Shown: piece by piece, positions 11,968-28,531 of the stretch
Layout: the number at the start of each line of letters is the position of its first letter
Position numbering within the stretch: position 1 is the stretch's first letter
Sequence record: NC_041937.1
Source: Escherichia phage V18
Strand: one strand, 5' to 3'
DNA length: 64,000 nucleotides
Position numbers and translations under genes: made by a program
Notes under the pieces: generated by a model
What the model saw: the letters and a program-made list of their open reading frames with translations, nothing else
What the model was told of the DNA's origin: nothing
Databases searched by the model: none

Positions 11968-14279
11968 TCACCAAGGTAATTAAAAGCAACGGATGTGAAG
12001 TGGCATTCGATCCAGAACGTTTAAATAAGGCAGCTATTTTCGGTGACGACGGTAACGGCAATTGGTCACATATTGCACTGGATGCCTACAAGCGGTTGTA
12101 TGATGGATGTACAACCAAAGAAGTTAACCAAGCTATTATAGACTCTTGTGTTAGCCGTAAAGACGAAGCACATTCCCGTATGGCTGGTCGTGTTCTTATT
12201 GGTCAGATCTATAAAGAGGCTTTTGGAGGGTTTACAAAGATCCCTTCCTTACCATCATTTTACAATGACATGGTTGAGAAAGGTTATTGGGAGGATATGG
12301 GTTATAGCTTTACCGAGCTAAACACTTTAGACGCTGTTATTGACCACAGTAAAGATCTCGGTTATGGCTATGCAGTCCTTAAACAGTTTCGCGACAAATA
12401 CGGGATCAAGGATACTCTTAAAGACACCTTGTTTGAATCTCCCCAGATGATGTTTATGGGGATAGCAATGGCTGTCATGAAGAATATGCCGAAAGAACGT
12501 CGTATCAACGATGTTGTAAAATTATACACTTATCTGTCCGACTTAAAGATCAATGCCCCGACACCGTACTTAAACGGGCTGCGCACAGGTAAGACAGGGT
12601 ATGCATCTTGTTGTGTAATAAAAGCTGACGATACAGCAAAATCTATTGGTGTGGCACGTGAAGTTGCGTACACAATGACGGTTAACCAAGCAGGTATCGG
12701 CTACTACTTATCCTCAAGATCTGCAGGCGATGGTGTTCGTGGTAACACTATTAAACATATGGGTAAGATTCCATATTATCGAGGTATTGATGCTGGTGTT
12801 AAGGAGAACAGACAACAATCACGTGGCGGTTCTGCAACAGTATCATTCCTTGCACTGGACCCGCAGATTGATGAGCTAATCCGTTTGAGAAACCCTATGA
12901 CTGTTGCTTCAAAAAGAATCAACACCATGGACTACTCCATCGGTATTAATAGGTCGTTTATCAACCGTGTGGCTAAGAATTTAGATTGGATGCTTGTTTC
13001 TTATAAGCACGCTCCTCAACTGCATGAGGGTATCTTCACCATGTCTATGGAGGAGTTCGATGCAGAGGTTGAGCGTATTGCTAAAGATGACAGTATTCCT
13101 AAGACATGGATCCGGGCTAGAGATCTTGCTGTTGAGCTGATCACGCAGCGTACTGAGGTGGGAAGACTGTACGTATACTGGACAGATGAGATGAATAGAC
13201 ATACACCTTTTAAAGATGTGATCTATTCAAGCAACCTGTGTGCAGAAATAGCCCTCCCGACAAAAGGCTATTCAGATATGCGTAATATCTTCAAGTACGA
13301 TGTTGATGATGGTGAGGTTGCATTGTGCTTCCTGTCATCTCTTGTAGCTGGAAGGGTTACCCCAGAGGAGTATGAGGATGTTGCATACTACACGGTGCTT
13401 ATGATTGACAATGTTATGGAAATCATGACATATCCGTATGAAAACATGGAGAGTACTGTTAAAAAACGCAGATCCATCGGGGTTGGCCTTACCAATGTTG
13501 CACATTTTATTGCCAGCCACAAGGTTACTTACGGATCTCCTGAAAGTAAACAGCTTGTTCACGATCTTGCAGAACTTCACAGCTACAGCTTGCATAAGGC
13601 AAGTTTACGGTTGGCAAAAGAGCGTGGTGTCTGCGAGTGGATGTATAAAACAAAATATCCAGAAGGTTGGTTACCAATCGACACTTATAACAAAGAGGTC
13701 GATAGTGTGGTGAAAGATCCTTCTCTTAAACAGGATTGGGAAGGGTTACGTAAAGAAATCATTGAAAATGGTGGGCTACGTAATAGCGTTCTTGAAGCAT
13801 ATATGCCTAATGAAAGCTCTTCGCTGGCAACAAACACCACTAACGGGGTTTATCCTGTCCGTGAGCACATTATCTTTAAAAAGTCGCCACAAGGGCAGGT
13901 GCTGTTTATCGTTCCTGAATACGATGAGTTGAAAGAGTATTACACTTCGGCTTGGGACGTTGATACTAACGACATGATCGATATGTATGCTGTGATTCAA
14001 AAATTCACAGGTCAGGCAATCAGCGCGGATTTATACATAGACTACACCAAGTTGAAAGATGGTAAAATTTCAATGAAGGAGCAGCTAGGGTACCTTATCC
14101 GTGCCACTAAATTCGGGATGAAGACATGGTATTATTTAAACTCTAGGGTTGGTGCTGGTGACTCCTTGGCAGAGGAACTTCATGCCAAGAAACAGGCTGA
14201 AGATGAAACCAGAAAGAACTATCCTTTGATTGCAGATAGTTCAGTTGAAGATCCGTATTGCGAAAGTTGTGCACTATAA
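11964..14279 (+). CDS. nrdA: ribonucleoside-diphosphate reductase large subunit (class Ia)
   Basis: 771 aa; N-terminal ATP-cone, active-site NLCAEI, C-terminal CESCAL. Confidence 0.9.
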   Translation: MITKVIKSNGCEVAFDPERLNKAAIFGDDGNGNWSHIALDAYKRLYDGCTTKEVNQAIIDSCVSRKDEAHSRMAGRVLIGQIYKEAFGGFTKIPSLPSFYNDMVEKGYWEDMGYSFTELNTLDAVIDHSKDLGYGYAVLKQFRDKYGIKDTLKDTLFESPQMMFMGIAMAVMKNMPKERRINDVVKLYTYLSDLKINAPTPYLNGLRTGKTGYASCCVIKADDTAKSIGVAREVAYTMTVNQAGIGYYLSSRSAGDGVRGNTIKHMGKIPYYRGIDAGVKENRQQSRGGSATVSFLALDPQIDELIRLRNPMTVASKRINTMDYSIGINRSFINRVAKNLDWMLVSYKHAPQLHEGIFTMSMEEFDAEVERIAKDDSIPKTWIRARDLAVELITQRTEVGRLYVYWTDEMNRHTPFKDVIYSSNLCAEIALPTKGYSDMRNIFKYDVDDGEVALCFLSSLVAGRVTPEEYEDVAYYTVLMIDNVMEIMTYPYENMESTVKKRRSIGVGLTNVAHFIASHKVTYGSPESKQLVHDLAELHSYSLHKASLRLAKERGVCEWMYKTKYPEGWLPIDTYNKEVDSVVKDPSLKQDWEGLRKEIIENGGLRNSVLEAYMPNESSSLATNTTNGVYPVREHIIFKKSPQGQVLFIVPEYDELKEYYTSAWDVDTNDMIDMYAVIQKFTGQAISADLYIDYTKLKDGKISMKEQLGYLIRATKFGMKTWYYLNSRVGAGDSLAEELHAKKQAEDETRKNYPLIADSSVEDPYCESCAL

Positions 14280-14283
14280 TTTT

Positions 14284-14306
14284 AAAGGGGCTTCGGCCCC
14301 ATTTTA
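14284..14306 (+). terminator. intrinsic terminator
   Basis: ggggc-ttcg-gcccc hairpin then atttt. Confidence 0.6.
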
Positions 14307-14318
14307 GAGGTTAGAATA

Positions 14319-15407
14319 ATGGCTGTATTTAATGCTGAGAACACCGCTCATAAAACTGGTGACTATCCGCTGTTTTTAGGACAGCAAATGGGTATGTACG
14401 ACTCTATCAACAAAAAATATCCACAACTGTTTGAACTATACAAAAAACAAAAAGAACAAGATTGGGCAGAGGATGAAGTGGATTTGTCGCAATCTATTTC
14501 AGATTTTGTAACATGCTCAAAGTCAACTTATGACGTGATGGTACAGACCTTGATGTGGCAATGGGAGGCTGATAGCGTTGCGGCAAGATCGATCATCTGC
14601 CTCTTTTCACCGTTCATCACTAATAGTGAGCTTTTCACTCTATTGATGAAACAGTCGGAGATTGAAGTTCTTCACGCACTAACTTACTCAGAGATTGTTA
14701 GACAATGCCTCCCCAATGCCCGTGAGATTATAGAAGAGATTCAGGAAAACCAAAACGTTCTGAGCAGATCCGGTGTTATTGTCAAATACATGCAAGAGCT
14801 AGAGGTTATTGGTGCAAAATACCGACTGGATCCTTCTAGTGTTGAAGAAGATGTTGTGCGGAAATGCATTCTTAGAGCGCTTTTTGCACTTTTAGCTCTG
14901 GAAAGTATTGAGTTTATTGCAAGTTTTGCATGCACTTTCGCAGTAGCTGAACAGGGTATCTTTGTTCAGGTGGCGCAGCTTGTTCAAAAAATCATGCTTG
15001 ACGAAATGCTACATTCGAAAGGTGATTTTGCCATCATTGATATCTTGCTTAACGATCCCGCATGGGAGAAAAGCTTCCTGGAGATAAAAGGGGAGTTAAA
15101 AGAGATTCTTGATGAAGTACGAACCAAAGAGTACGGTTGGAGTGACTATATTTTCAGCGAAGGAAGAGCGATTATAGGTCTTAACTCACCGTTGCTTAAA
15201 GAATGGGTTGACTATAACTGCTCACCGATTTATGATTACTACGACATCGACAAAGACTTTGTGCCGCCAACAAAGGACCCGCTACCGTTTATGCAGGTGT
15301 GGATGAAACCTTCATTGCAACAGACGGCGAACCAAGAAATGTCGAACACTGACTACCGCGTCAACACAACTGTTAACGACGCTGAAGAAGAAATTTGGGA
15401 GTTTTAA
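14319..15407 (+). CDS. nrdB: ribonucleoside-diphosphate reductase small subunit
   Basis: 362 aa; follows nrdA; iron-ligand helix pattern (ESIEFIASFACTF). Confidence 0.85.
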   Translation: MAVFNAENTAHKTGDYPLFLGQQMGMYDSINKKYPQLFELYKKQKEQDWAEDEVDLSQSISDFVTCSKSTYDVMVQTLMWQWEADSVAARSIICLFSPFITNSELFTLLMKQSEIEVLHALTYSEIVRQCLPNAREIIEEIQENQNVLSRSGVIVKYMQELEVIGAKYRLDPSSVEEDVVRKCILRALFALLALESIEFIASFACTFAVAEQGIFVQVAQLVQKIMLDEMLHSKGDFAIIDILLNDPAWEKSFLEIKGELKEILDEVRTKEYGWSDYIFSEGRAIIGLNSPLLKEWVDYNCSPIYDYYDIDKDFVPPTKDPLPFMQVWMKPSLQQTANQEMSNTDYRVNTTVNDAEEEIWEF

Positions 15408-22908: not shown

Positions 22909-23142
22909 ATGAAAGTTAAATTTCTTACAGATTTAGGGTACCCTTCCTTGGTTGACTGTGTTGGTAAAATTGTGGAAGCAAAACGGCTATCTGCAAACGA
23001 GAATGTTGTCCTGGTTAAAGGGAAGGATTTACTAGCTGCAGGTGCAGAGTCTGGCAGGATCTCTCCTGATTATATGTATTACCTATCTTTAAGTAATCTG
23101 CCAGAGCGAGGCGGTAAAGGCCTTGAAGTTGTGGAGGAGTGA
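22909..23142 (+). CDS. small acidic protein, MK[VI]K...VEE paralog family
   Basis: 77 aa; MKVKFL start, LLAAGAESG core, ends EVVEE. Confidence 0.45.
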   Translation: MKVKFLTDLGYPSLVDCVGKIVEAKRLSANENVVLVKGKDLLAAGAESGRISPDYMYYLSLSNLPERGGKGLEVVEE

Positions 23143-23344
23143 CAGGTATGCTTCTGATTAACTGGGAAGACCTCTATGGGCCTTTATGGGAAAAGAGCAT
23201 GTATTTAAAATGGTGCGTTAATTTAGGGAGGCCTTCCAGTGTTTCAAGCCATGTTTATTGAGATGCTATCTGGGGTATTGTTACTGGTAGCCATCTTAGG
23301 TGGTGCAGTTCTGATGTATAACTATCTTGAAAAAGGAGACAGCA

Positions 23345-25031: not shown

Positions 25032-25403
25032 ATGAAACTTTTTGAGTGGTTTAAAAAGTTTAAATATAAAGCTGTAGCCATCGTGCCGTGGTCAATTCAG
25101 TGGGTTGATGAAGGTGGTCTACCAATACCTGGTGACAAAGATACTGGGTACTGGATTATGATGGAGAACGGGTTTGGAAAGCGAAAGTATACGTGCACAA
25201 ACTCTACTCGATCTGCCACTAACTGGTCTAAATTCTACTGGGGAGCCAACGAGTGGGGAAGATACGCCACCAAATCAATGGCACTTATTGGTATAGCAGA
25301 GTACATTGCAGCCAGAGATAGGGTTGGAGACACTTATTACTATACTGCGGACGATATTCGTAACAGTGTTTACGTCCCACAACCACCTGATGGAGACCGT
25401 TGA
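25032..25403 (+). CDS. hypothetical protein
   Basis: 123 aa ORF. Confidence 0.4.
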   Translation: MKLFEWFKKFKYKAVAIVPWSIQWVDEGGLPIPGDKDTGYWIMMENGFGKRKYTCTNSTRSATNWSKFYWGANEWGRYATKSMALIGIAEYIAARDRVGDTYYYTADDIRNSVYVPQPPDGDR

Positions 25404-25627
25404 TGAAAGTTAAAGTTTTAGATTCAAGCTTCTATATTGGTCAGGAGCCCTTAGTGGGGAAAGTGTTTACTGCTGTCCCTAACGAAGATTACCCCGACCT
25501 TTTAAAAATAAAAGGGGCAGATCTTATTGCCGCTGGTGCATCTCATGAATGCTTTGACAGTCAGTGGACCTACAACTTTGCCCTAGGTGAGGATGTAGAG
25601 ATAGTGGAGGACGATCATGAAGGTTAA
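25400..25627 (+). CDS. small acidic protein, MK[VI]K...VEE paralog family
   Basis: MMKVKVLDSSFYIGQ...GADLIAAGAS...EIVEDDHEG. Confidence 0.45.
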   Translation: MMKVKVLDSSFYIGQEPLVGKVFTAVPNEDYPDLLKIKGADLIAAGASHECFDSQWTYNFALGEDVEIVEDDHEG

Positions 25628-25871
25628 AATTCTTGATTCTAACGTCTACTTGGGACAATCCTTCCTGAAGGGAAAGGTAGTTCCTGCGGTATACTTTGAA
25701 GGGTTGCCGTGGGATGATCCTGTGCGGCAACATCACAGTTATGTAGGCCACAACGTAGTGTTTATCTTAGGATCAGACCTGATCGCTGCTGGTGCACCGG
25801 AATATTATTTCGGGGAAGAATCCTATTATGCCTTTGGGGCAGGGTCAGATGCAGATATTGTAGAGCTGTGA
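25617..25871 (+). CDS. small acidic protein, MK[VI]K...VEE paralog family
   Basis: MKVKILDSNVYLGQ...GSDLIAAGAP...DIVEL; tandem to previous. Confidence 0.45.
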   Translation: MKVKILDSNVYLGQSFLKGKVVPAVYFEGLPWDDPVRQHHSYVGHNVVFILGSDLIAAGAPEYYFGEESYYAFGAGSDADIVEL

Positions 25872-25883
25872 TGGGTAACCGTT

Positions 25884-26279
25884 GTGAAAAATAAACTGTT
25901 CAAAGTTACAATGAAAATTCGCGGAGCTTGGAGCGTAAAGCAAGGGCGTATCCCAGAATTTGAGAAAGACTTCTACGTAGTCTCCACCTCGGAGGAGGCT
26001 GCATGCTGGCAGGCTGGCTATGCCTATGCAAGAACCTGGTACGAAGGATACCAGACTGGGGGCTATGACGGAGAAATTATCAGCAAGGGTGTGGAAGAAA
26101 TTAATGTGTTGACAAGTAAAAATTTTGTTATAGTGCATCCAGATTCCAGAGTGAAGCATTACTGGAATGCCAGAACAAAAACTTGGACACCGTTTGCAGA
26201 TTCTGCTACACCACTTTTAAACCAAAAAGCTCTTGACTCTGCCCCGAGCTACGGGGTTGTTGAAGAAAAGCTAGACTGA
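25884..26279 (+). CDS. hypothetical protein (paralog of 28089-28484)
   Basis: 131 aa; shared block HP-S-xxYW-xxxx-WTP. Confidence 0.45.
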   Translation: MKNKLFKVTMKIRGAWSVKQGRIPEFEKDFYVVSTSEEAACWQAGYAYARTWYEGYQTGGYDGEIISKGVEEINVLTSKNFVIVHPDSRVKHYWNARTKTWTPFADSATPLLNQKALDSAPSYGVVEEKLD

Positions 26280-26296
26280 AACAGTGAGGTGCCACT

Positions 26297-26587
26297 ATGA
26301 TGGATTTAGTTCTGAATATTGATAACGCAGGGGAGTTTAAAGACGATGGTGTAACAAGCATTGACCAACCATGCTCTGCCAAGATTGACTCAAAATGGGC
26401 CTACAAGTTTGACGGAGAGATCTTCGCAAATGATGAGAAGGTTGTAGATGCTGCAGCCATTTTGAACGCTCTAGGGTACGACCCTGTGAATTCTTTGATC
26501 AAGGATCCTGTTGAGTTTGCAGAGTATGTTCGAAAAATGGCAGATCTTGCTGTAGATATTTTAGATACTATCGATAATAAGCTGTAA
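26297..26587 (+). CDS. hypothetical acidic protein
   Basis: 96 aa ORF. Confidence 0.4.
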   Translation: MMDLVLNIDNAGEFKDDGVTSIDQPCSAKIDSKWAYKFDGEIFANDEKVVDAAAILNALGYDPVNSLIKDPVEFAEYVRKMADLAVDILDTIDNKL

Positions 26588-26593
26588 AAACTG

Positions 26594-26622
26594 TTGACAC
26601 AACGCTTCAGATTTAGTATCAT
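26594..26622 (+). promoter_or_regulatory. sigma70-like promoter (TTGACA-17-TATCAT)
   Basis: -35 at 26594-26599, -10 at 26617-26622, immediately upstream of the HPF-like gene. Confidence 0.6.
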
Positions 26623-26671
26623 TGTTTTCAAAGAGAGATAGTTATTCCCTCTTCCTTAAAAGGAACACGTT

Positions 26672-26992
26672 ATGCAAATTGAAATCACTGGCAACAATGT
26701 AGAAATCACAGAAGGTATGGTATCTTTTATTTCCCGCAAAATGTCCAAGCTGGAGCGTTTACATCCCTCTGTCAACTATGCACGTGTGAGTGTAAAAGTT
26801 GAAAATGATCACCAGGAAGTTATGGCGTTCATTTTTGACAATTCTGGAAAAGAAGTTATTGCCAAAGCTAAAGGCAGTGATGCTTACGAGGCAACTGACC
26901 GTATGGTAGATGTTGCAGCACGTCAGCTGGCTAAATGCGGTGGAAAGAAAGGTAAGGGGAAAGGCAAAGTAAAGATTGACTTTGGAGAATGA
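26672..26992 (+). CDS. hpf: ribosome hibernation promoting factor / RaiA-like protein
   Basis: 106 aa; MQIEITGNNVEITEG...KLERL nearly identical to the bacterial HPF N-terminus MQLNITGNNVEITEA...KLE; similarity continues through VKVEN...ARQLAK. Confidence 0.8.
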   Translation: MQIEITGNNVEITEGMVSFISRKMSKLERLHPSVNYARVSVKVENDHQEVMAFIFDNSGKEVIAKAKGSDAYEATDRMVDVAARQLAKCGGKKGKGKGKVKIDFGE

Positions 26993-27129
26993 GGTGCTAC
27001 AATGGGTGTGATTAAGAAATTAGTCACAAATGTAGAGATTGCATGCTTTGAAATTATGTTTGCAATCGCAGTTGTAGTTAATGTGTTAGGTTACGGCTAT
27101 TAATATCAAATAATTGAGGAGACCTCTAA

Positions 27130-27399
27130 ATGAAAATTAAATTATTCAAAACTGAGCTGGCAGACAAAAACTGTGGACTGGTTGAAGGCATGATTGTTGA
27201 AGCACAACCAGTGGACTATATGAAGGTGGTTCGTGATGCCCTAGGTGAAGGTTTTGATCTGATGGAGCCAGCTCTGCGAGAAGATGTTATCGAGATGGCT
27301 AAAAAGCACACACCTGAAGGTTTGGTGGTGTTTGTTGCACCGGGTAACGGAGAAGAGTTGATTGTAACTCCGGATGTGTATGAGATTGTAGAGGAATAA
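27130..27399 (+). CDS. small acidic protein, MK[VI]K...VEE paralog family
   Basis: MKIKLFKTE start, ends YEIVEE. Confidence 0.45.
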   Translation: MKIKLFKTELADKNCGLVEGMIVEAQPVDYMKVVRDALGEGFDLMEPALREDVIEMAKKHTPEGLVVFVAPGNGEELIVTPDVYEIVEE

Positions 27400-27490
27400 T
27401 CCTGCTTGGATTAGCATACTTCCTCGATAAGGAAGATTTGTAATTATTTGTGGGAAAGGAATCCCAATCTCTTACCAGAGGTGATACTAT

Positions 27491-27670
27491 ATGATTGTTT
27501 ATTTTAAAACTTCAGGTGGATACCCTGATTCTCAAAGCTTGATCGGAAAAACGTGCACAGCATACTCACCTCTTGATGAGGAGGTAAGCGATATTCTACG
27601 AAATATGTATCGGATTGACCCCCAAGAAGCTTTGATCAAAACCTTGTATTTGTCAAGGGCTCAGATATGA
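27491..27670 (+). CDS. hypothetical small protein (59 aa)
   Basis: RBS GAGGTGA before ATG 27491; below the ORF-track size cutoff. Confidence 0.3.
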   Translation: MIVYFKTSGGYPDSQSLIGKTCTAYSPLDEEVSDILRNMYRIDPQEALIKTLYLSRAQI

Positions 27671-27757
27671 AGTCTTTGGGAGCATTCCCTGAAGCAGATG
27701 ATGATGCCGTTTATTCGTTCATGACTCCTTTTGAAGCTATGGTTGTTGGGTGATAAT

Positions 27758-27949
27758 ATGAAAGTACGCTTTATTGGTGAAACAATTCCTGTGCATCTCC
27801 GGTCTCCTGAGGATTCTGCAGATCTTGCATCTCAAAAGGCGAGAGGTTATGATAAGAAAGTAACCTCAACCGATGTAGTGCTTGAGGCTACTAGCTACCT
27901 GACCCTGCTGCATTCTTTAATCATTATGGGTACTATTTCAGCAACCTGA
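27758..27949 (+). CDS. hypothetical protein
   Basis: ATG 27758 (MKVRFIGE) inside the 27731 ORF frame. Confidence 0.3.
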   Translation: MKVRFIGETIPVHLRSPEDSADLASQKARGYDKKVTSTDVVLEATSYLTLLHSLIIMGTISAT

Positions 27950-28088
27950 TGAATATCGGTGAGCTTGTATTTATTAGTGGTGGAGAAATTGTTAGCAAGC
28001 TCGGTGGCGATCCAGATGTCTTTCATGAAACCTGTCCTTTTGCATTTGTGGTAGGTTCAGATGTGGAAGTTATTGAGGAGGTGCGGTA

Positions 28089-28484
28089 ATGGTAAGCCTA
28101 TACCGTGTCGAGTATAGCTCGGATACTGTATACAACGTAAGAAGCAAAGATCGCAGCGACAGAGTGCAAGAAATGTATGTTCTTGCCGACAGTCCGTTAT
28201 CTGCAGCGTTCAAGGCAGGGGCTCTTGCATCTCGTTGGAAATTTGAAGGTGGATCTTTCTATGAAGAAACCCTTGAAGATTCTGTTGTTATTTCTTCTGT
28301 AGAGGTTTCAGATGACTACGAAGGGAAAAAGTTCGTAATGCGGCACCCACACAGCAATATTGCGTACTACTGGGACGTTCTGAACAACGAGTGGACCCCA
28401 GATCTTCAGAAGGCTACTGTGCTAACACCGTTTTTGGCAGATAAGTTCCCACCAGAAGGTAATTTATCTGCACTGTTTCAGTAA
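28089..28484 (+). CDS. hypothetical protein (paralog of 25884-26279)
   Basis: 131 aa; FVMRHPHSNIAYYWDVLNNEWTP versus FVIVHPDSRVKHYWNARTKTWTP. Confidence 0.45.
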   Translation: MVSLYRVEYSSDTVYNVRSKDRSDRVQEMYVLADSPLSAAFKAGALASRWKFEGGSFYEETLEDSVVISSVEVSDDYEGKKFVMRHPHSNIAYYWDVLNNEWTPDLQKATVLTPFLADKFPPEGNLSALFQ

Positions 28485-28502
28485 TTTTCTTGCACACAGG
28501 TG

Positions 28503-28531
28503 TTGACAACGCCAACCCTGTGTGAAATAAT
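28503..28531 (+). promoter_or_regulatory. sigma70-like promoter (TTGACA-17-AATAAT)
   Basis: -35 at 28503-28508. Confidence 0.55.

Follow-up and report, generated by a model that had tools for sequence, protein, structure and literature searches.

The closest described counterparts of the gene pair treated here are gp137 and gp144 of phage rV5, both of which are labelled hypothetical in the rV5 reference record (RefSeq), in which the neighbouring gp128 is labelled a virion structural protein. No study of these two genes was found in the literature; their paralogy is not discussed in the rV5 genome paper (PMC3606486), and a phage transposon-mutagenesis preprint mentions neither rV5 nor Vequintavirus, the gp144 that appears there being that of phiKZ. 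Their grouping was already implicit in PHROGs, and both the genes and their family, phrog_7379, are present in public databases. We have examined the corresponding pair in a stretch of 64,000 nucleotides from Escherichia phage V18 (NC_041937.1), referred to below as the window, in which positions are counted from the first letter. The window belongs to a Vequintavirus, an rV5-like E. coli myophage, and the 6-kb stretch around the pair shares 96.5-97.4% identity with more than 100 deposited rV5-like Vequintavirus myophages. The pair consists of two entries of the open reading frame (ORF) list, ORF A (25884..26279, + strand, GTG start, 131 aa, pI 7.8) and ORF B (28089..28484, + strand, ATG start, 131 aa, pI 4.7), located in a long rightward array of small genes 3' of the genes for PhoH, a ClpP-like protease and an adenine methyltransferase. 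ORF A is an A-type member of phrog_7379 and the orthologue of rV5 gp137/ORF142 (YP_002003639), and ORF B is a B-type member and the orthologue of rV5 gp144/ORF149 (YP_002003646). Our results indicate that A and B are probably an ancient, fixed pair of paralogues.

The original prediction, which was made from the letters of the window alone, had described A and B as a duplicated pair of equal length with a common C-terminal block. Both ORFs are present as predicted, on the + strand, and the block is indeed common to the two proteins, although the similarity extends well beyond it. In BLASTP, residues 5-111 of A aligned with residues 4-112 of B (112 columns, 28% identity, E 1e-9), and the pair was also detected, with E 3e-7, in an all-against-all BLASTP of all the ORFs of the window. 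The global alignment score was 106, as compared with -40 +/- 13 for shuffled sequences (z 11.3), and the local alignment score was 118, as compared with 28 +/- 4.7 (z 19); none of 2000 shuffles of B reached the observed score in either mode, so that the pairwise alignment is far above background, also when it is made globally. Moreover, each protein matches the phrog_7379 profile from end to end (residues 2-131 of A on profile positions 1-131, E 8.1e-72; residues 1-131 of B on the same positions, E 2.1e-66). As judged by sequence comparison, A and B are homologous along their whole length and are paralogues of one family. A third copy was not found when a profile of the A/B pair was run against the six-frame translation of the window. 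A similarity due to chance or composition, between ORFs that would be unrelated or non-coding, has a negligible probability in our judgement, since an identity of just 28% is what could be adduced for it, while the shuffling results (z 11 and 19) and the fit of both proteins to a single independent profile contradict it, as does the selection acting on the two genes.

This selection was measured within each set of orthologues by the Nei-Gojobori method, on a sample of 8-11 lineages. Both copies are found in essentially every Vequintavirus genome (~115): full-length A is present in 115 records, with 95-98% identity (~115 Vequintavirus records), and B in 117, with at least 99% identity in 104 of them. 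The ratio of nonsynonymous to synonymous substitutions (dN/dS), summed over pairs, was 0.059 (A) and 0.053 (B). In comparisons of A with L006, the most divergent member, from which the others are separated by a dS of ~0.5-0.6, it ranged from 0.04 to 0.07, and for B the range was 0.04-0.06. A dN/dS of ~0.05 indicates that A and B are both translated and strongly constrained, which argues against their being non-coding.

With regard to the gene models, the equal length of 131 aa holds in this window, as had been noted in the original prediction, but not elsewhere, since A has 399 nt (132 aa) in all seven of the other Vequintavirus genomes compared. The window carries a private deletion of 3 nt (one codon) in A at ~26115-26123, which changes SEKVF to SKNF, and the equal length of the two genes is therefore a coincidence of this genome. 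In some records, A is given an internal ATG as its start and a length of 123 aa. However, the stretch ahead of this internal Met can be aligned to B as well as to the distant orthologues ([LI][YF]x[VI]), and L006 has an ATG at the exact codon at which A of the window has GTG, for which reasons the GTG at 25884 is the correct start. The annotation of gp137 should accordingly begin at this GTG (ATG in some strains) and give a protein of 131-132 aa, not 123 aa. The ATG of B is preceded by a strong ribosome-binding site, GAGGAGG, and overlaps the stop codon of the upstream gene (TAATG).

Relatives of the pair are few. When A was compared by tblastn with 50,697 phage records (E <= 0.01), the matches were confined to Vequintavirus; a note in the rV5 record that describes ORF142 as 'similar to Listeria phage A118 hypothetical protein' was not reproduced in these 50,697 records. 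When 1.84 billion representative proteins were searched exhaustively with a profile, the only additional full-length relatives were P0007 and P0008, which match phrog_7379 at E ~1e-25, and a later search of 90%-identity clusters added P0014, a variant of P0007. The contigs that carry these relatives are syntenic with the window and much more diverged. In the lineage represented by L002 and L013, a phage contig within an E. coli assembly, there is only a B-type gene, with 37-38% identity to B and 24-28% to A. This gene is found in the B slot, after a gene for a ribosome hibernation factor (HPF) and three small genes, and the A slot is occupied by an unrelated gene of 96 aa, a homologue of which lies two genes upstream of the A-type copy of L005. 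In the L005 lineage, known from metagenomes and including L007-L010 and L027-L029, there is only an A-type gene, with 36-39% identity to A and 24-27% to B, which is located between homologues of the window genes at 25032 and 27130, while the B slot is empty. Two observations on the search itself can be added. Four long repetitive proteins from the exhaustive search, P0010-P0013, were rejected because their scores are inflated by repetition: P0010 is a low-complexity repeat, P0013 contains RYYWTVRA repeats, and P0011 and P0012 contain five FYLLNNPDVAAAV.AG..GWEHY repeats, each of which contributes a few bits against profile positions 22-53. Apart from this, P0011 (659 aa) and P0012 (1006 aa), both metagenomic, are built of tandem repeats of ~34 residues, FYLLNNPDVAAAV.AG...GWEHY..FG..EGR, that are weakly like the helix region of the family.

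Each of the two genes of the window is thus closer to a gene of another lineage than to its own neighbour, the identity between A and B in this comparison being 23-24%, and a quartet that joins A to the L005-type copy and B to the L002-type copy was recovered in 1998 of 2000 bootstraps. The split between A and B predates the separation of Vequintavirus from its two sister lineages, L002-type and L005-type. The codon alignment of A and B is in keeping with a great age: nucleotide identity is 39%, dN is ~1.0, and the proportion of synonymous differences (pS) is 0.78, which means that synonymous sites are saturated and that no dN/dS can be estimated between the two genes. No direct repeat or repeat family joining the A and B loci was found in the DNA.

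These data do not agree with a recent or still ongoing local duplication, by which the locus would be expanding, as the original prediction had proposed. The presence of two paralogue families within one 6-kb stretch and the equal gene length in this window could be taken in its favour, but the equal length is peculiar to this genome, and saturated synonymous sites, 39% nucleotide identity and the lack of repeats between the loci are not those of young copies. Besides, the two genes are separated by a predicted promoter and by ~1.8 kb of unrelated genes (26297..28089, + strand, from the ORF list and PHROG matches), they are not each other's closest relatives, and there is no gain of copies in any of ~117 genomes. 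We consider such a recent event very improbable. The comparison of copy number with related phages, which had been suggested as a check, showed variation by loss and not by gain, and the changes now taking place in the region are mostly deletions and frameshifts.

The simplest history, which we regard as fairly likely, would consist of one in-genome duplication in an ancestor, before the three lineages parted, followed by reciprocal loss, such that L002-type phages would have kept the B-type gene and L005-type phages the A-type gene. It can also be the case that the ancestor had a single gene and that the rV5 lineage gained A (or B) by recombination with a co-infecting relative, the two genes being then xenologues, although this is rather unlikely. 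The region is certainly mosaic, since 28-29% of the 20 kb of L002 is ~89-91% identical to rV5-like phages and the rest is much more diverged, and PhoH is 91% identical to that of L005 and 72% to that of L002; the distances (1.27 between A and the L005-type copy, 1.52 between the L005-type and L002-type copies, and 2.06 between A and B) would be compatible with such a gain as well. On the other hand, the single-copy genes are each found in the slot that matches their own type, which is more simply explained by loss from a two-copy ancestor, and the A-slot gene of L002 has a homologue in the neighbourhood of the A-type copy of L005, which is again simpler under differential loss. Some considerations weigh against the history of ancestral duplication and loss that we favour. 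The comparison covered 20 kb of each L002-type or L005-type genome, the contigs being of 124-139 kb, so that a second copy could be located elsewhere in them; this is unlikely, and none was found in the 90%-identity clusters. In addition, the family tree is unrooted, the sole candidate outgroup, gp155 of the Seunavirus 4MG, being too distant for reliable alignment.

A natural deletion provides information on the requirement for one of the copies. EduardKellenberger (MZ501061, L014), an isolate of the BASEL collection that was obtained and grown on E. coli K-12, has lost 3.8 kb (L001 4726-8550), with an overlap of ~15 nt at the junction (L014 4017-4031). The deletion takes ~14 accessory genes and the ~103 first codons of A, fusing the 'putative glycosidase' gene to the ~30 last codons of A, and leaves B intact. 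Since this phage is viable without most of A, plaque growth on E. coli K-12 does not require A. That both copies are kept at a dN/dS of ~0.05 in spite of dispensability in the laboratory suggests a distinct benefit of each in nature. A side observation concerns the records themselves: eighteen GenBank entries under the title 'Campylobacter phage' (MG0656xx, host given as C. jejuni) share at least 90% identity with E. coli rV5-like phages in this region, with 96-97% protein identity for ORF A among those listed, which suggests a mis-assigned host or contamination.

The most conserved part of the family is the C-terminal block, which comprises F81-P103 of A (FVIVHPDSRVKHYWNARTKTWTP, 26124..26192, + strand) and F82-P104 of B (FVMRHPHSNIAYYWDVLNNEWTP, 28332..28400, + strand), as delimited from the alignments, and which is predicted to form a three-stranded beta meander. 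Its F, H, P and two W residues are the same in all 11 family sequences, and over these sequences there are 14 invariant positions in total, including Y30, G44, R49, F82, H86, P87, W95 and W102 (B numbering). AlphaFold models were obtained for A (pLDDT 62, from an alignment of 4 sequences) and for B (pLDDT 76, pTM 0.70, from 7 sequences). The two models have one topology, namely a beta hairpin, a long helix and a strand, followed by the three-stranded meander of the conserved block and, after this, by a short helix and a last strand. The strands of the block span residues 80-84, 91-95 and 100-103 in A, and 81-85, 94-96 and 101-103 in B, where pLDDT is 80-90. On the basis of these models, A and B are predicted to be soluble alpha+beta proteins of ~15 kDa; no obvious long hydrophobic segment was found in either by hydropathy (GRAVY -0.51 for A and -0.38 for B), which was assessed without a transmembrane or signal-peptide predictor. 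The two proteins differ in charge, A being near neutral and B acidic.

Searches for known domains were negative. Family proteins gave no significant match in Pfam and no match to the PADLOC models of anti-phage defence; in NCBIfam there was a sub-threshold match alone (E 0.16; 11.5 bits, the cut-off being 250), and a sequence profile search of the PDB gave nothing significant, the best matches, at E 0.31, being PI4K2A and Prp19. A WW domain was considered for the W..W..P meander and rejected, as Pfam gave no match and the invariant Trp pair is just 7 residues apart. In WW domains the two Trp residues are 20-22 residues apart.

As for the role of these proteins, we tentatively propose that they are accessory host-binding proteins, used in host takeover or in counter-defence. 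A and B would be non-essential host-interaction factors of the accessory module that includes PhoH, ClpP, methyltransferase and HPF, would be expressed from the predicted promoters for host RNA polymerase, and would each act by binding to a host macromolecule, not by catalysis. The invariant F..HP..W..W.P meander could be a structural core or a binding surface, and the paralogues, which differ in charge (pI 7.8 versus 4.7), may have sub-functionalised toward different partners. This proposal is based on the host-type predicted promoters, the small size and narrow distribution of the proteins, the loss of copies in relatives, the strong selection and the dispensability of A. Counting against it, the features invoked (context in the genome, small size, dispensability, narrow distribution) are common to phage accessory genes in general, and the structural models (pLDDT 62 and 76) are of moderate confidence.

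Another possibility is raised by the gene for the phage HPF, of the S30AE/RaiA family (26672-26992, + strand), which lies between the two copies. A and B might act on ribosomes or RNA, flanking this factor and working with it, as is also suggested by a possible LX-like fold of the models. Nevertheless, B is acidic, and HPF is absent from the L005 lineage, which weakens this reading, and we consider it improbable. Slightly less probable still is the fuller version of it, in which A and B would be ribosome- or RNA-binding factors with the LX/eL20 fold that, together with HPF, form a module reprogramming host ribosomes early in infection; if this were true, a basic or neutral A and an acidic B could act on different sites or as a heterodimer. 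As an observation on the hibernation factor itself, its gene is found in rV5-like phages and in those of the L002 type, but not in L005-type phages.

Whatever their role, the annotation of rV5 gp137 and gp144 should present them as two paralogues of a single family. The finding matters little beyond annotation, and the pair, with its reciprocal single-copy orthologues in two lineages of Vequintavirinae and the natural deletion of gp137, represents a convenient, well-controlled case of an orphan accessory family.

The surroundings of the pair show further features. Between A and B there are a 96-aa gene of phrog_12029, the HPF gene, an 89-aa gene of phrog_11868 and two small frameshifted genes. 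A consensus scan predicted a sigma-70-type promoter-like site at 26594..26622 (+ strand, TTGACA-17 nt-TATCAT, 11/12 matches), at a position equivalent to that of the 'Sigma70-type promoter; P144' of the rV5 RefSeq record. If functional, this predicted promoter would put A and B in different transcription units. A second predicted site of the same type, with a TG extension (28503..28531, + strand, TTGACA-17 nt-AATAAT), starts 19 nt past the stop codon of B and is annotated as 'P150' in rV5. E. coli-type promoters have been predicted throughout the rV5 genome (PMC3606486). An 8-bp inverted repeat, CACACAGG / CCTGTGTG (28493-28500 / 28517-28524), has the -35 hexamer of the 28503..28531 site in its loop, and no palindrome like that at 28493-28524 was found at the other strong promoter-like sites of the region.

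The original prediction had counted the pair as a second, independent duplication of the region, and another paralogue family, independent of the pair, is indeed present there, namely phrog_5009, a family of small proteins of 75-85 aa (MKVK...GSDL...VEE) with copies at 22909-23142, 25400-25627 and 25617-25871. The copies at 25400 and 25617 are 42% identical (E 1e-13), and there are weaker phrog_5009-like members, including the C-terminal domain of the gene that precedes B (27949-28089). This domain shows weak similarity to the genes that precede A (E 3e-4 to 1e-3 in a very small database), and a duplicated module of two genes, a small phrog_5009-like gene followed by a 131-aa gene, was therefore considered. 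Such a module was not established, because the small-protein family is scattered regionwide and the L005 gene upstream of the A-type copy is unrelated.

In comparison with EmilHeitz, the window has deletions of 814, 144 and 207 nt at 23180/23181, 24705/24706 and 25222/25223, respectively. The first has removed the 'putative glycosidase' gene and several small genes, and the third has fused two genes into the ORF 25032-25403, the N-terminus of which corresponds to phrog_8932 and the remainder to phrog_12340. Single-base deletions relative to the same phage, at 27630/27631 (in a T run) and at 27894/27895, cause frameshifts in two genes upstream of B, splitting homologues of 87 aa and 110 aa into the ORFs 27491-27670, 27731-27949 and 27949-28089; these could be real pseudogenes or the product of sequencing errors. 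Other features were observed in the sister contigs. In L005, a TnpB-like gene (OrfB_IS605 / Cas12f1-like_TNB, 13532-14644) is found inside the small-gene array, and a gene with a T5orf172/MUG113 domain (1657-2556) is inserted between PhoH and the ClpP-like protease. In L027 (5644-6384), an unrelated upstream ORF of 120 aa is in frame with the A-type gene, with no stop codon between them, which might result in a fusion protein of ~246 aa.

A comparison with known systems can be made at three levels. With respect to phrog_7379 and to gp137 and gp144 of rV5, there is no substantive difference, since the proteins of the window are 95-100% identical to deposited Vequintavirus proteins and only A of the window bears the private one-codon deletion. 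The possible resemblance to the ribosomal proteins eL20 and LX (L18Ae) would be one of fold alone. These have no sequence similarity to the phage proteins, and all seven family members tested lacked a Pfam match to Ribosomal_L18A / eL20-LX at E <= 10; the phage proteins have, in addition, a C-terminal beta meander, and B is acidic. We read the models as a resemblance to a common small alpha+beta fold and not as membership of that family. Finally, gp155 of 4MG, a protein of 185 aa, has an N-terminal half that can be likened to the beta-beta-alpha-beta domain of the family. It was the best six-frame match in the 4MG genome, its sole PHROG match was phrog_7379 (E 0.009), hhalign gave E 0.002, and Foldseek against BFVD gave E 9e-4 with a TM of 0.57. 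Unlike the family in Vequintavirus, gp155 lacks the HP..S..YW..WTP block, which is replaced by a basic, probably helical tail, and it is single-copy in 4MG; like A and B, it is encoded near the end of a small-gene array associated with PhoH, ClpP and methyltransferase genes. Four results, each of them weak alone, agree in this respect, and the N-terminal half of 4MG gp155 is probably a remote relative of the A and B proteins.

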